52,911 nucleotides of DNA from Candidatus Firestoneibacteriota bacterium (GTDB lineage: Bacteria > Oederibacteriota > D2-FULL-39-29 > JBDRBU01): NCBI GenBank assembly GCA_043822305.1, contig JBDRBU010000034.1, forward strand, positions 1 to 52,911. Direction: 5' to 3'. This document shows positions 11,280-52,760 of this stretch, in pieces. The notes under the pieces were generated by a model that was given only the letters and a program-made list of their open reading frames with translations, was not told where the DNA came from and searched no databases. The first letter of the stretch is position 1. The number at the start of each line of letters is the position of its first letter. The position numbers were made by a program, and so were the translations under genes.

Positions 11280-11513
11280 GTAAATCATCAGTGAAAGCCG
11301 TGAGGATTGTATTTCCGTATTCCCCCTTTGTTAAGGGGGATCAAGGGGGTTGTTGTGTTATGAATGTTTATTATAATTCAAAATTGAAATTTCGTGTAAG
11401 AGAACTTAACCATAAAATATTGTTTAGCAAACTGAAACTTGTAATTAAACAACCCCCTAACCCCCTTTATTAAGGGGGAATTAAAAAATAGAGGGCTTTT
11501 ACTGAATATTTAC
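11280..11513. mobile_element. MITE-like element, copy 2 (234 bp)
   Basis: Imperfect 20-bp TIRs GTAAATCATCAGTGAAAGCC / GGCTTTTACTGAATATTTAC; inner inverted CCCCCTTTnTTAAGGGGG palindromes. Confidence 0.85.
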
Positions 11514-13368: not shown

Positions 13369-13386
13369 AAAGGGGCAACCTTTTTA
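13369..13386 (+). terminator. Possible weak intrinsic terminator after the major pilin
   Basis: AAAGGG-GCAA-CCTTTTT short hairpin with T tract. Confidence 0.35.
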
Positions 13387-13389
13387 TTC

Positions 13390-13456
13390 CTAACCCTGTA
13401 CCATTCGCAGGTTCAGGTACAGGGTTAGTATTATTTGGTTATATTATGGAAAGTCA
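13390..13456. repeat. 13-bp-stem hairpin fused to a 31-nt B module
   Basis: CTAACCCTGTACC-loop-GGTACAGGGTTAG, overlapping TAGTATTATTTGGTTATATTATGGAAAGTCA (13426-13456). Confidence 0.75.
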
Positions 13457-19787: not shown

Positions 19788-20273
19788 ATGAAGTTTAAAG
19801 GAAAAGTTTGGAAATTTAAAGACAATGTAAATACTGATGAGATAATACCAGGCAGGTATTTAAATACATCTATTCCAAAAGAATTAGCCAAGCATGTTAT
19901 GGAAGATATAGACGCTAACTTTGTAAAAAAAATAAAACCTGGAGATATTATTGTTGCTGGAAAAAATTTTGGTTGTGGGTCCTCAAGGGAACATGCACCC
20001 CTGGCCATAAAAGCTTTAGGTATTTCCTGTGTTATGGCTAAAAGTTTTGCAAGAATATTTTATAGAAACTCTTTCAATATAGGACTGCCTATAATTGAAA
20101 GTGAAGAAGTGGTGAAAAATGTTAAAGAAGGTGATGAGTTAGAGATAGATATCGAAAAAGGTATTATAAAAAATATATCTTCTGGGGTAATATATAGTAT
20201 CCAGCCTTATCCGGAGTTTATGCAAAGTTTAATAAAATCCGGTGGTCTGATGAATTATGTGAGAGAATCATAG
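19788..20273 (+). CDS. leuD: 3-isopropylmalate dehydratase/homoaconitase small subunit
   Basis: [21 protein letters not shown] and SFARIFYRN motifs. Confidence 0.9.
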
Positions 20274-20278
20274 TCCAG

Positions 20279-20536
20279 ATGAATAGTAAAAACACATTGG
20301 TAGCAAAAATAAAAAGGACTTTTACTTCAATTTTGCCTATTGATAAAAACAGGATTGGACAGTGTCTTAGATGTGGAAGGTGTTGTAGGTTGCCAAATGT
20401 TTGTCCATTTTTAAAAATTGGAAAAGATAAAAATATAGTTTGTCTTATCTATCTTATCAGACCTTTAAACTGCAGAAAATATCCAAGAACAAAATCCGAA
20501 TGGCTTACTTCTGATGTTTGTGGGTACAGATTTTAA
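20279..20536 (+). CDS. Small Cys-cluster protein (YkgJ-like Zn/Fe-S)
   Basis: CxxCxxCC...CPFL...C.IY.IRP..CRKYP...C pattern. Confidence 0.7.
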   Translation: MNSKNTLVAKIKRTFTSILPIDKNRIGQCLRCGRCCRLPNVCPFLKIGKDKNIVCLIYLIRPLNCRKYPRTKSEWLTSDVCGYRF

Positions 20537-20575
20537 ATAGGGACACCCATTTTTTACTCAAAAAAATCCTTTTTC

Positions 20576-20604
20576 TTTCATTTTAAAGAATATTCTGGTA
20601 TAAT
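20576..20604 (+). promoter_or_regulatory. Extended -10 promoter directly upstream of the modular array
   Basis: TTTCAT-17 bp-TATAAT with TGn; predicted start at about 20611. Confidence 0.5.
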
Positions 20605-20607
20605 TTA

Positions 20608-21067
20608 TAGTCTGGTTGCCAATGCAACCAACTATTCCTAGTATTATTTATTTACATTATGGAAAGTCATAGTCTGGTTGCCGTAAATAGTCAGTAAAAG
20701 CCGTGAGGATTATATTCCCATATTCCCCCTTTGTTAAGGGGGATCAAGGGGGTTGTTGTTAGACAATACGATATGGAACGGCAACGATTATTAGAATTCA
20801 TGAAATTTAAGCGTTAAAAGAACAACCCCCTAACCCCCTTTATTAAGGGGGAATTAAAAATTAGAGGGCTTTCACTGAATACTTACTGGTTGCCAATGCA
20901 ACCAACTATTCCTAGTATTATTTATTTACATTATGGAAAGTCATAGTCTGCCCGCCTAATGCGGGCAACTATTCCTACTCTGATTGCTTTGCAATCAAGT
21001 ATTCCTAATATATTGATTTTACATTAAAGTAAGTCATAATATTATTTGGTTACATTATTGAAAGTTA
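20608..21067. repeat. Modular array of A (bulged hairpin + TTCC) and B (31-nt) units
   Basis: A 20608-38, B 20639-69, A 20670-912 (split by the MITE), B 20913-43, A 20944-75, A 20976-21005, B 21006-36, B 21037-67. Confidence 0.85.
20683..20886. mobile_element. MITE-like element, copy 3 (204 bp) with 8-bp TSD
   Basis: TIRs GTAAATAGTCAGTAAAAGCC / GGCTTTCACTGAATACTTAC; TGGTTGCC duplicated at 20675-82 and 20887-94. Confidence 0.9.
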
Positions 21068-23025
21068 TGAATATGGAAACTTCAAATAAAAATAAAATAA
21101 TAATTGTAGGTAATCCAAATGTTGGCAAAAGTGTAATATTCAACAATTTAACAGGTGTATATGCTACTGTTTCTAATTATCCTGGAACAACGGTAGAAGC
21201 ATATAGGGGTAGGACAGTTATAGATAAAACCGAGTATGAAGTAGTAGATACTCCTGGGATGTATTCATTTGTATCCATTACTGAAGAAGAAAAAGTAGCA
21301 AGAGATATAATTTTAAATGAAAGAACAAAGGTAATCTTGCATATTGTTGATGCAAAAAATTTAGAAAGGATGTTGCCTTTTACTTTACAACTTATTGAGG
21401 CTAATTTACCTGTTATCTTAGTGCTTAATATAATGGATGAGGCTGAAAGATTGGGAATAAAGATAAATATTGAATCTCTTGAAAATGAATTAGGTATACC
21501 GATTGTTTCAACAATAGGGACATTAGGGAAAGGAATAAAACTTTTAAAAGAAAAAATATCCAACTATACTTCAAAACCAGCCAAATATTTTAGTTATGAT
21601 AATAATATTGAAGATTTTATAAAATTGATTAGTGCTGAAAAGTTAAGAAAAAAATATATAGTTTCAAAAAGATTCATATCTATTCTTCTTTTACAGGATG
21701 ATCCTCAAATAAATTATATGGTTAAAGAAAAAGAGCCGGAAAATTATAAAGTAATTCAAGAATTGATAAAGAAATTAAGAAAAAAATATTCCAATTCTTT
21801 GAATTATACAATATCTCTTGAAAGACAGAAAAATGCTTCTATTATTGTCCATAAATCTCAGAATTTTTCGAAACTTAAGGGTATGGATTTTGCTGAAACA
21901 TTAAGCAGGATGACCATGAAGCCATTAACAGGGTATATATTGGCTTTTATAATACTTTATTTTGGGTTGTATAAATTTGTTGGTGAGTTTGGTGCAGGAA
22001 CTTTAGTTAATTTTATTGAAGATAAAGTTTTTGGAGAATTTATTATTCCACCCGCAACAAATTTTATTGAATATATTTTTCCATGGAAGGTATTGCAGGA
22101 TTTGTTTGTTCATGATTATGGTCTAATTACACTTGCTATGAGATATGCAGTAGCAATTATTTTACCAATAGTAGGGACATTTTTTCTTGTATTTGCTATT
22201 ATCGAAGATTCGGGATATTTGCCAAGATTAGCCATGTTAATTGACAGATTATTTAAAAATATAGGGTTAAGTGGTAGAGCGGTTATTCCCATGGTACTTG
22301 GTTTTGGATGTGGTACAATGGCGGTAGTAGTAACAAGAACTTTACCTACACGAAAGGAAAGGATTATGGCCGTACTTCTTCTTTCTCTGTGTATTCCATG
22401 TTCTGCTCAATTAGGAGTAGTTTTTGGACTTTTAAGTAATAATCCAAAAGCGTTAGTTTTATGGCTTGGGATAATTTCTTTAATTTTTCTTTTAGTAGGG
22501 TTTTTTGCTTCAAAAATCATGACAGGAGAGTTGCCTGTATTTTTTATGGAAGTGCCTCCTCTAAGATTTCCGAAGATTACTAATGTTTTAATTAAAACTT
22601 ATACTCGTGTAAAATGGTATTTTAAAGAAGTTTTTCCATTGTTTATTCTGGTTAGTTTTTTTATATGGGTTGGACAGATTACTGGAATATTTGATATAAT
22701 AATAAGGTTAGTAGGTTATCCGGTTAAATGGATTGGGCTTCCTCAAGAAGCTTCTGTTTCATATTTATTTGGATTTTTTAGAAGGGACTATGGAGCCGCC
22801 GGCCTTTATGATCTGAACAAATCTGGATTACTTAACGGAAATCAACTCCTTATATCTGTGATTACAATGACACTGTTTCTTCCTTGTGTCGCTCAATTTT
22901 TAGCAACTATTAAAGAAAGTGGTTGGAGGGTAGGTACGACTATTGCTGTTGTTGTTCTTTTTATTGCTTTTTTTACTGGATATTTTTTAAATTTAATATT
23001 TAATGTTTTTAGGATAATAATATAA
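21067..23025 (+). CDS. feoB: Ferrous iron transporter B
   Basis: GNPNVGKS, NYPGTTVE, DTPG, EDSGYLPR and LGFGC motifs; polytopic C-terminus. Start 21067 or 21073. Confidence 0.93.
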   Translation: MNMETSNKNKIIIVGNPNVGKSVIFNNLTGVYATVSNYPGTTVEAYRGRTVIDKTEYEVVDTPGMYSFVSITEEEKVARDIILNERTKVILHIVDAKNLERMLPFTLQLIEANLPVILVLNIMDEAERLGIKINIESLENELGIPIVSTIGTLGKGIKLLKEKISNYTSKPAKYFSYDNNIEDFIKLISAEKLRKKYIVSKRFISILLLQDDPQINYMVKEKEPENYKVIQELIKKLRKKYSNSLNYTISLERQKNASIIVHKSQNFSKLKGMDFAETLSRMTMKPLTGYILAFIILYFGLYKFVGEFGAGTLVNFIEDKVFGEFIIPPATNFIEYIFPWKVLQDLFVHDYGLITLAMRYAVAIILPIVGTFFLVFAIIEDSGYLPRLAMLIDRLFKNIGLSGRAVIPMVLGFGCGTMAVVVTRTLPTRKERIMAVLLLSLCIPCSAQLGVVFGLLSNNPKALVLWLGIISLIFLLVGFFASKIMTGELPVFFMEVPPLRFPKITNVLIKTYTRVKWYFKEVFPLFILVSFFIWVGQITGIFDIIIRLVGYPVKWIGLPQEASVSYLFGFFRRDYGAAGLYDLNKSGLLNGNQLLISVITMTLFLPCVAQFLATIKESGWRVGTTIAVVVLFIAFFTGYFLNLIFNVFRIII

Positions 23026-23045: not shown

Positions 23046-23684
23046 ATGATAAGTGAAAAAACAGAAGAGATATTGGAAGAATTATGGATAAAAATTATTG
23101 AGAATAAACAAAAATCGGTTAAAAAAAACGATTTAAATTTAAATGTAAAAGAATTAGTGGATTTAAAGTTAATAAATATAGATTCAAATGAAGTTAAGTT
23201 AACTGAAGAAGGAAAAAAAGAAGCAGAAGATGTAGTTAGAAGGCATCGATTGGCCGAAAGGCTTTTAGTTGATATTTTAGATGTTAAAGGAGGTCTTGTT
23301 CACGAATCTGCTTGCCAGTTTGAGCACCATCTTCACAGGGGAATTGATGAAAATATCTGCAGACTCTTAGGACATCCTAAGATATGTCCACATGGCAGTC
23401 GTATACCACCAGGAAAATGTTGTCGAGAGAAAAAAACCTATAAAGATATTAGAGTTATTTCTCCATTGGCGCAGGTAAAAGTTGGTGAGGAAGGCAAGAT
23501 TGCTTATATTCAAGCAGATGATCAGAGCAAACTAAGAACAATAATGGCGATGGGTATACTGCCTGGAATGGAGATTAAATTGATACAAAATTTTCCATCT
23601 TATTTATTTAATGTTGGTCACAGTCAGTTTGCTGTTGATGAAAACATTGCCAACGAAATTTTTGTTAGGATTGTAACTAAATAG
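23046..23684 (+). CDS. DtxR/MntR-family metal-dependent regulator with C-terminal FeoA domain
   Basis: RRHRLAERLL, ACQFEH, LGHPKICPHG, then an SH3-like FeoA domain (MGILPG). Confidence 0.85.
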   Translation: MISEKTEEILEELWIKIIENKQKSVKKNDLNLNVKELVDLKLINIDSNEVKLTEEGKKEAEDVVRRHRLAERLLVDILDVKGGLVHESACQFEHHLHRGIDENICRLLGHPKICPHGSRIPPGKCCREKKTYKDIRVISPLAQVKVGEEGKIAYIQADDQSKLRTIMAMGILPGMEIKLIQNFPSYLFNVGHSQFAVDENIANEIFVRIVTK

Positions 23685-52311: not shown

Positions 52312-52331
52312 ATTATAAAAGGAGAGTGTGT

Positions 52332-52700
52332 ATGTTAAACAGTATTGTTAGTTTGCTTTATGCCATGGGTGATATCCCGCAAGGATCTCCACAGCAAGGT
52401 GCCCAGTCGTTTATTCCAACTTTGATAATGTTTGCATTAATATTTGTGATTTTTTATTTTTTGTTGATAAGACCACAGATGAAACAACAAAAGAAACATC
52501 AGGAGATGCTCACCAGTTTAAAAAAAGGTGATAAAGTTTTAACATCAGGAGGATTATATGGAGTGGTAGTTGGAATATCTGATAGGGATAATATTATTGT
52601 AATAAGAATAGATGAAAATACTAAAGTAGAAGTTGGAAAAGGATATATTATTGGTGTGAAAAGAGAAGGTCAGGAAGTAGTTATAGACCAAAGTAAGTAG
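52332..52700 (+). CDS. yajC: Preprotein translocase subunit YajC
   Basis: FYFLLIRPQ and LKKGDKVLTSGGLYG motifs. Confidence 0.93.
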   Translation: MLNSIVSLLYAMGDIPQGSPQQGAQSFIPTLIMFALIFVIFYFLLIRPQMKQQKKHQEMLTSLKKGDKVLTSGGLYGVVVGISDRDNIIVIRIDENTKVEVGKGYIIGVKREGQEVVIDQSK

Positions 52701-52760
52701 TCTGCCCGCCTAATGCGGGCAACTATTCCTAATATTATTTATTTACATTATGGAAAGTCA
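52698..52760. repeat. Solo A+B module pair
   Basis: A is identical to 20944-75; B differs by 1 nt from 20639-69; begins at the yajC TAG. Confidence 0.85.

Follow-up and report, generated by a model that had tools for sequence, protein, structure and literature searches.

The ferrous iron transporter gene feoB of a Candidatus Firestoneibacteriota bacterium is preceded by the largest pile-up in its genome of a repeat of about 62 nt, which we term AB. Each unit joins a 5' hairpin with one bulged base (A) to a 3' AT-rich, unstructured tail (B). AB is a real and well-defined repeat family that had not been annotated before, and it does not amount to a new kind of system. Its restriction to one lineage, its many copies, its unrelated neighbouring genes, one clean insertion and nesting at a single fixed point make it likely that AB is a selfish mobile repeat. 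Our full explanation, that in the array before feoB copies of a non-autonomous, lineage-specific miniature mobile element have piled up, we hold at a probability of roughly 0.55. The array lies on a stretch of 52,911 nt (the window), which is contig C34 of a draft genome of 2.15 Mb in 125 contigs (31.6% G+C). In what follows, C-numbers denote contigs of this source genome (G000), other G-numbers genomes of the phylum, and L-numbers loci of relatives.

Anatomy of the array and its repeat family

The array reads A-B-A-B-A-A-B-B over positions 20608-21067 (Table 1) and resolves as [AB][A(MITE)B][A[AB]B], where MITE stands for a miniature inverted-repeat transposable element: an identical tandem pair is followed by one unit nested within another. 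An earlier reading of the window, made from its letters alone (the sequence-only reading), had described eight abutting modules in this order. The order stands; the abutting does not, as the second A is split at 20683-20885 by the MITE, which that reading overlooked. Once the insert is removed units 1 and 2 are 100% identical over 65 nt, and a covariance model of the unit matches unit 2 at 20884-20943 (66 bits). The A modules have the three sequences, the bulged C and the TTCC tail first described, the AB unit at 52698-52760 and the B at 13426-13456 are where they were said to be, and all six B modules of the window are indeed 31 nt.

Table 1. Features of the feoB array, its surroundings and other AB sequences in the window
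Feature	Position	Strand	Details
A modules	20608-20638, 20670-20912, 20944-20975, 20976-21005	+	
B modules	20639-20669, 20913-20943, 21006-21036, 21037-21067	+	
AB unit 1	20608-20669	+	A 20608-20638, stem TGGTTGC/GCAACCA; B 20639-20669; covariance model 84 bits, E = 3.7e-15
AB unit 2	20670-20943	+	A = 20670-20682 plus 20895-20912, hairpin split by MITE; B 20913-20943
MITE of 203 nt, unrelated to AB	20683-20885	not assigned (.)	terminal inverted repeats; interrupts second A after 20682
Outer hairpin A of unit 3	20944-20975	+	stem TGCCCGC/GCGGGCA
Nested AB unit, own subtype	20976-21036	+	TACT-C-TGATTGC hairpin plus ...AAAGTAAGTCA tail; 76 bits
Outer tail B of unit 3	21037-21067	+	final base is the A of the feoB ATG (offset -1)
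feoB, ferrous iron transporter B	21067-23025	+	TIGR00437, 446 bits against a cut-off of 316
DtxR/MntR-family metal-dependent regulator	23046-23684	+	3' of feoB; NF047407 83 bits, NF053665 77 bits, both under their cut-offs, so assigned at family level only
TG-n-TATAAT, extended -10-like	20596-20604	+	3 nt 5' of the array; read by eye
Solitary AB unit	52698-52760	+	85 bits; first TAG of the unit serves as stop for the upstream yajC open reading frame (52326-52700)
Module 'C' (13391-13425) between a decayed A tail (TATTCC) and B (13426-13456)	13385-13456	+	28 bits, E = 0.008

Across the genome the AB unit spans about 60-64 nt. Its hairpin, of 26-29 nt, consists of a 4-bp outer stem, one bulged C, a 7-bp inner stem (an 11-bp stem in total) and a loop of 3-6 nt, and is followed by TTCC or TGACC. 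The tail ends in GGAAAGTCA, with the general form (G/A)GNAAGTCA; TTACA is among its best-conserved positions, and outside the window its length runs from about 26 to 31 nt. DNA and RNA folding both recover the A hairpins, and B shows no fold (-0.8 kcal/mol and z = -0.38 for B alone; z = +0.65 for a B-B pair). The claim that each module begins with TA holds in the window and fails genome-wide: a subfamily, A2, begins (A)GGTC, and the copies of relatives begin CA.

A strict pattern for A has 30 matches in the genome, against none for the reversed pattern and none in 40 relatives; a stricter pattern with fixed loop length, run over the window, found one match where 0.00 were expected. A looser structural search returned 63 bulged hairpins. 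Three of these lack family sequence and were dropped by eye (C89:25699, C118:52348 and C107:10722), leaving 60 hairpins with 33 distinct sequences at 58 loci. In all 33 sequences T4, the bulged C5 and T6 are invariant. When the 33 are set against the 11-pair structure 97.2% of cells are paired, and eight of the 11 pairs have changed on both sides, so that the compensatory stem and constant bulge proposed from three window sequences extend to the family. This level of pairing was reached by none of 500 shuffles, and sliding the partner by 1-3 columns leaves 18-49% paired. Stem mismatches (three G:T, four others) are too few to tell which strand folds.

The covariance model was built on 35 of the 36 distinct A+B units, the excluded one having a tail cut by the MITE. 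Within this genome it yields at least 82 matches at E <= 1 and at least 49 of full length at E <= 9e-10; it scored 150 of 5325 first-look candidates, and these copy counts are therefore lower bounds. The true number is probably higher, since a contig ends within 300 nt of at least seven of the 58 loci. The sequence-only reading had staked itself on copies elsewhere, on the persistence of bulge and covariation in them and on the lack of such an array in relatives. Many copies were found, bulge and covariation are kept, and no such array was found in relatives.

Because hairpin and tail subtypes are linked, the propagating unit is the A+B pair and not separate A and B modules. The TACT-C-TGATTGC hairpin leads to a ...AAAGTAAGTCA tail in four of four cases, and the GGT-C-TAATTGC...ATGACC hairpin to a ...TAAGGAAAGTCA tail in 12 of 12; chimeras of hairpin and tail are few (C14:17938, C39:15253, C110:10637). 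The idea of A and B as free modules, from which the sequence-only reading set out, has to be given up. A further type of hairpin (GCACCCGC-TTC-GCGGTGC, then ATTCC) replaces A before B at C36:24015-24068 and C123:26899-26952; L074 (G010) 1370-1418 is listed in the same GCACCCGC-type class, and truncated TGCACTCC+B versions occur in relatives. At C102:16642-16667 and C89:11882-11907, the latter between rplM and rpsI, a hairpin is fused directly to the last ~12 nt of the tail; these short forms are consistent with deletion between short direct repeats within the unit.

Nesting, insertion and distribution

Given subtype linkage, the order A-A-B-B implies that one unit is nested where A and B of another meet, and the unit at 20976-21036 is inserted at this point of unit 3. 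The arrangement A-A-B(-B) is present at five loci with differing outer hairpins (the window, C1, C41, C67 and C116), and the inner subtype of the window also follows an outer A hairpin at C41:5536, C67:35933 and C116:11450. A third module, a hairpin of 35-38 nt (CCTGTACC...), sits in the first bases of B at seven loci, including positions 13391-13425 of the window. Identical tandem neighbours occur in the window, on C121 (four equal units) and on C14, and fit either local duplication or adjacent reinsertion.

AB is lineage-restricted. The source genome is the only member of its family among the genomes compared, and the covariance model, applied to 98 other genomes of the phylum, found a full-length copy in G008 and G004 only, one in each. 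The 12 genomes of the order, scanned separately, gave weak partial matches in G010 and G006. Plasmid and phage collections held no relevant match, and a full-text literature search returned no description of the AB family.

The copy in G004 preserves a record of insertion. A 64-nt unit (CACTCTG to GGGAAGTCA) sits within what remains of a tRNA-Arg(CCT) 3' part, some 80 nt from the intact gene: the remnant reads ...GGAATCG[64-nt unit]AACCACCAGCGC and the intact gene ...GGAATCGAACCGCCAGCGC. As read by eye from the alignment rows, in which MAFFT opened no gap, this is a clean insertion with neither target duplication nor loss, and it places the boundaries of the unit at the first base of A and the last base of B, as the sequence-only reading had them. 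G008 has the same tRNA-Arg insertion with one flank difference. The site in both genomes ends in G, and there is no TA on either side.

Partial duplicates of the tRNA-Arg(CCT) 3' end lie about 150 nt from the intact gene, at L069 (G008) 1474-1720 and L070 (G004) 1203-1450; the one in G008 has a tyrosine integrase gene on its other side. The arrangement looks like an old attachment-site scar at which the AB-like unit arrived later. G010 and G006 each have a tail-like end directly beside a tRNA-Ala(CGC) 5' half that is truncated: at L071 (G010) 1380-1671 and L072 (G006) 1440-1667 duplicated 5' halves, together with duplicated upstream sequence, are joined to a reversed B-like tail. The remnant at L071 is interrupted again, by an insert with an inverted pair of the ATGAAAGTC tail end.

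In the source genome itself insertion sites share a loose preference. Among the 49 full matches the base before the unit is A in 35, and T-T/C-A, which is also the 3' end of the element, precedes 18, against about 6% expected from base composition. TAA follows the unit in 13 of 49, and TA follows the array end in 17 of 49. The sequence-only reading had proposed an unrecognised non-autonomous element that accretes at TA junctions. The family is indeed unannotated, dispersed, tandem and nested; the TA rule falls on the 17 of 49 and on the lack of TA at the insertion in relatives. On the same two counts we rejected a TA target duplication of the Tc1/IS630 kind.

The proximity of some copies to tRNA genes bears on another explanation, in which the units are chromosome-structure sites like bacterial interspersed mosaic elements (BIMEs), recognised by a nucleoid protein, gyrase or recombinase, or else attachment-site remnants of an integrative element. 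Four of five model matches in relatives lie in or beside tRNA remnants, one of them next to an integrase gene, and in the source genome one unit lies 3 nt 3' of tRNA-Arg(CCT) and one between tRNA-Gly and tRNA-Tyr. Yet no more than three of the 58 loci of this genome are near tRNA genes, and the contigs with tyrosine recombinase genes carry no unit. The stems, moreover, change wholly while pairing stays, which argues against a sequence-specific duplex-binding protein. We regard such sites as an extremely unlikely origin of the family.

The MITE that splits the second hairpin is itself classical, with inverted ends and a 9-bp target duplication, CTGGTTGCC, at 20674-20682 and 20886-20894. Its family is abundant (132 BLAST pieces genome-wide), and other full copies have 8-nt direct repeats beside them. 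Members lie at 11280-11512 and 75-139 of the window and at many contig ends, with target duplications of 8-9 bp; short forms of ~95 nt consist of the two ends joined, and the internal CCCCCTTTATTAAGGGGG hairpin region has many solo occurrences. The MITE has struck AB units at least three times: in the A hairpin here, within one B on C10 and next to an incomplete A on C96.

Contacts with genes

All but one of the 58 AB loci are intergenic, and their flanks are unrelated housekeeping genes, among them rplS, rpsL, rplM/rpsI, infC/rplT, atp genes, pgk, tpiA, pfk, serS, glyS, murJ, rnpA/dnaA and genes of the Wood-Ljungdahl pathway. We rejected a regulon for the lack of functional relation among these genes. 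A scan of 99 flanking proteins across the AB loci found no transposase, save for a pair of genes on C74 with helix-turn-helix (HTH) and AAA_22 domains. The two look like a two-gene transposon module; at C74:4528-6985 one AB unit, with part of a second, lies antisense between them.

Of the 58 loci, 28 run in the direction of both neighbouring genes and 14 against both; six lie between divergent genes, three between convergent genes, and seven have one neighbour. In 58 of 58 windows GC skew goes with gene strand; the two are fully confounded, so that a bias of replication strand is inseparable from one of gene strand or transcription. Gene-strand bias is extreme in the 58 sampled 30-kb windows: a contig often has 90-100% of its genes on one strand, and GC skew is 0.1-0.3. 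The sign of the skew tracks gene strand in 68 of 70 contigs over 10 kb.

Many units touch the coding sequences beside them. The stop codon of an upstream open reading frame (ORF) is the first TAG of the unit at eight loci and the reverse complement of its last TCA at three; two of the three reading frames through the unit are open. On the other side, the ATG of an ORF of at least 60 aa lies at offset -1 or 0 after eight of 59 tails, seven of which have an AAGG or GGAG variant. None of the canonical tails among the 59, those ending in ATTATGGAAAGTCA, abuts an ATG, and a gene within 20 nt of a canonical tail mostly has its own AGGAGG-like motif. The covariance model adds three tails that abut an ATG (C58, C39:37936 and C70:10109), and the B at 13426-13456 of the window is followed by AGGAG and then ATG. 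Secondary use by the host of the stop codon and a putative ribosome-binding tail, at more than 10 genes, is well supported at the sequence level and may explain the 2:1 bias in orientation. One copy lies inside a gene: at C39:44506-44565 (69 bits) an in-frame AB unit in an ORF of the UbiA family is read as ~20 residues, with homology resuming on both sides and 10 aligned homologues gapped there.

These contacts are what would be expected if AB were a host cis-acting RNA module, in which operon punctuation (a stop, a hairpin for protection or processing, and a tail to bind ribosomes) comes as one portable piece that selection maintains and recombination, not a transposase, has spread. Of the loci whose two neighbouring genes share a strand, two thirds run the same way as those genes (28 against 14), TAG ends eight upstream ORFs, the tails at start codons (eight of 59) have in seven cases the more Shine-Dalgarno-like variants, and units occur within tRNA and ribosomal-protein operons. 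The whole feoB leader also folds far better than shuffles (z = -6.8). At 14 of the 58 loci, however, the unit is antisense to both neighbours, with stop, ribosome-binding site and bulge strand all wrong, and one copy is translated within a gene; that antisense quarter and the translated copy rule out an obligatory regulatory role. The flanking genes have no function in common, and relatives run the same operons without AB. No Rfam family matches: with Rfam 15 the best match in the region 20000-21600, malK-II, has 24 bits where the gathering score is 52.9, and the single match over threshold in the entire window is a tRNA. A role for A as an intrinsic terminator was rejected, as no T run follows the hairpin and none was called. 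We judge an RNA module to be quite unlikely as the origin of the family.

At feoB itself, an ORF of 652 aa that begins MNMETSNKNKIIIVGNPNVGKS, the entire array would form the 5' leader if the predicted TG-n-TATAAT promoter is used. This motif was missed by our consensus promoter scan, which requires a -35 box. A rival idea is that AB is a promoter cassette, in which B supplies an outward -35 (TTTACA) and units, especially B-B pairs, make promoters for genes such as feoB. A 10 of 12 match (TTTACA-16 nt-TATTAT) does span the B-B pair at 21018-21045, the region holds 15 promoter-like sites where 5.6 are expected, and TTACA is well conserved in the tail. But AT-rich sequence yields many consensus matches, and a lone B has 13 nt after TTTACA, so that the -10 must come from the flank, and the flanks share none. 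Where B abuts an ATG a transcript starting inside B would lack the sole ribosome-binding motif; 14 loci face against both neighbours, and one unit is intragenic. A promoter cassette is in our view very unlikely.

The leaders of feoB at eight loci of relatives are ~100 nt long and hold no array. Four of them (L090, L091, L093 and L094, of family f3) share a palindrome, ...CTGATAnTTnTCATATAA... (TGATA...TATCA), ~60-90 nt before feoB, which we take to resemble a Fur-type operator. The palindrome was not seen before the feoB of the window, where a DtxR/MntR-type gene follows instead.

Proposed mobilisation and comparison with known systems

If AB is a mobile repeat without a gene of its own, then an enzyme encoded elsewhere would have to move it. 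Six Y1 genes of the genome exceed the Pfam cut-off, one of the IS200 type on C64 and five long ones, on C51, C68, C81 (two) and C100, that resemble RAYTs, the tyrosine transposases associated with repetitive extragenic palindromic (REP) sequences. The long gene on C100, the only one scored, reaches 71 bits against a cut-off of 80 for the REP-transposase model, and at least two of the long genes are flanked by inverted repeats of their own, unrelated to A or B. The IS200-type gene is found only in the source genome and G011, a distribution that is at best weak circumstantial support for a Y1 link. The IS200-type element is ~600 nt long and present in at least two copies: one runs from C64:26880-27425 into C87:1-141 or C86:11802-11942, and a second left end lies at C2:1-141. 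A CGACGC-TCT-GCGTCG hairpin both precedes and follows its tnpA, and the contigs overlap there by exactly 141 nt. An A-like hairpin 5' of the gene on C64 was rejected as a family member; it mismatches the A and B profiles, and comparison of the two copies places it outside the element.

We propose that AB would insert as a whole unit without duplicating its target, preferentially after A, often after T-T/C-A, and also at the hairpin/tail junction of resident copies. Such habits would produce tandem and nested arrays, to which local duplication may add identical neighbours. The bulged hairpin would be read on one strand by a structure-specific enzyme acting in trans; recognition of a folded single strand is suggested by the strand-specific bulge and by the freedom of the upper-stem sequence. 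Our leading guess, a tentative one, is a single-strand enzyme of the HUH/Y1 kind, which we regard as possible rather than probable. Copies could persist in a tightly packed genome by being compatible with expression, the TAG ending the upstream gene and the tail serving as ribosome-binding region for the next. A bolder version holds that AB is an undescribed class of minimal single-strand transposon, with one 5' bulged hairpin, a 3' GTCA end, duplication-free insertion and an enzyme outside the REP-RAYT system, co-opted as portable operon punctuation (stops, hairpins, ribosome-binding sites) for more than 10 core genes including feoB. This we think unlikely.

Several observations weigh against the explanation by a mobile element. 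No A or B module lies within 10 kb of any of the six Y1 genes, long Y1 genes are equally frequent in relatives without the AB family (five in G002, for example), and the source genome yielded no IS110-type gene and no TnpB over the cut-off. The sequence-only reading had looked to single-stranded DNA and a Y1 transposase for mobilisation, and to an adjacent Y1, RAYT or integrase gene for confirmation. Neither is borne out: in addition to the distant Y1 genes, AB has no GTAG or CGTC tag, B has no second hairpin, and the four tyrosine recombinase genes (on C9, C94, C108 and C119) are all on contigs without a unit. The joined flanks of all 58 loci, compared by BLAST with the genome, gave a trivial self-match only, and a search for FeoB in genome and metagenome contigs returned only proteins 56% identical, and no close strain. 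No public sequencing run turned up for positions 20200-21500. Comparison of empty with filled alleles, which had been suggested as a check, thus has nothing to offer within the genome and one case outside it, the clean insertion in the tRNA-Arg remnant of G004, which is old and lies in another family of the order. With no empty and filled pair in the genome and no close strain, present-day mobility is something we infer. The identical tandem copies may owe their origin to slippage or unequal exchange rather than insertion, and the arms of quasi-palindromes can stay matched by templated repair without selection. The bias in orientation could reflect function or strand preference, and our gene calls, a greedy choice of ORFs of at least 90 aa, are crude.

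Small hairpin repeats (REP, BIME, BOX) are common and the mode of spread of most is unsettled; the AB family is unusually easy to read, with a fixed 62-nt unit, sharp boundaries, an invariant extrahelical base and stem variants that amount to natural compensatory mutants. It is a handy substrate for finding a nuclease that recognises a bulged DNA hairpin. It would also show how a selfish repeat can survive in essential operons, by carrying its own stop codon and ribosome-binding site, and it accounts for the long structured leader of feoB and for several contig breaks in the assembly.

Among known systems, CRISPR arrays have identical repeats with unique spacers between them, whereas the sequences between the AB hairpins are themselves a repeat family, B; on this the sequence-only reading was right. 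From the attC sites of integrons, which divide promoterless cassettes in an array beside an integron integrase, AB is set apart by its 58 loci among core genes and by the tyrosine recombinase contigs without a unit. Unlike those of a classical MITE, its ends (TAGTC... and ...AAGTCA) are not inverted repeats, and there is no duplication. It differs too from the TIRtron of the same genome, an autonomous element of ~750 bp with a tyrosine transposase gene, whose 20-bp inverted repeats are unrelated to A or B sequence. The small dispersed repeats of cyanobacteria treated by Elhai et al. in 2008 reportedly insert into each other and also into repeats of other kinds, without an assigned transposase; they are said to be about 21-27 nt long and to be without the two-part design of hairpin plus tail.

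AB may resemble IS200/IS605 elements and their gene-less derivatives, called palindrome-associated transposable elements, in duplication-free insertion 3' of a short sequence similar to its own 3' end; it shares with IS200/IS605 a hairpin with an extrahelical base near the left end, and strand bias. However, IS200/IS605 elements have sub-terminal hairpins at both ends, set back from the points of cleavage, whereas AB has a single hairpin that starts at the first base, and its right half is unfolded. With regard to the IS200/IS605 target rule, AB has inserted without duplication in the tRNA-Arg remnant; T-T/C-A precedes 18 of 49 units, a loose preference, and the G004 and G008 site ends in G. 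The end hairpins of the IS200-type element of the same genome are unrelated to AB. Y1/HUH enzymes recognise the folded single strands of REPs and of IS200/IS605 ends, according to the portion of PMC8266576 cited here.

In the cited portions of PMC3733652 and PMC8266576 a REP is defined by a tetranucleotide, GTAG or CGTC, left unpaired at one of the palindrome's ends. In AB the first four bases (TAGT, TACT, TGGT, GGT) pair and covary; only four of the listed flanks have a G before TAG, and there is no CTAC or GACG at the other end. In size and number AB does fit the description of a REP as an imperfect palindrome of 20-50 nt, present in many, mostly intergenic copies, with 26-29 nt, 60 copies and 57 of 58 loci intergenic. 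With REPs, BIMEs and REP doublets forming hairpins (REPINs) it shares compensatory changes in the stem and an irregularity of the stem that may mark the strand; near-identical tandem arrays, mutual insertion, some intragenic copies and a location mostly between same-strand genes are further likenesses (Di Nocera 2013, PMC3733652; Corneloup 2021, PMC8266576; Bertels and Rainey 2011, PMC3116915). It is unlike these elements in the obligatory 31-nt unstructured tail to each hairpin and in having about 60 copies, not hundreds. A REPtron has repeats flanking its Y1 (RAYT) gene, and here none lies within 10 kb of the six Y1 genes; REPINs and BIMEs are inverted REP doublets with a linker, in tandem, and each AB array has a single orientation.

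The BOX repeats of Streptococcus pneumoniae are, like AB, modular composites whose internal modules vary by local gain and loss, and which are co-transcribed with their neighbours and may alter expression (Croucher 2011, PMC3049150, in the portion cited). The sequences are unrelated, and a BOX, on the same partial account, consists of end modules boxA and boxC around repeated boxB, with MITE-like features (PMC3049150), whereas AB is one two-part unit that repeats and nests. By the traits that define those classes AB is neither a REP, a REPIN or BIME, an IS200/IS605 derivative nor a classical MITE; it functions most nearly as a REP does, and in construction it comes closest to a modular repeat of the BOX type.

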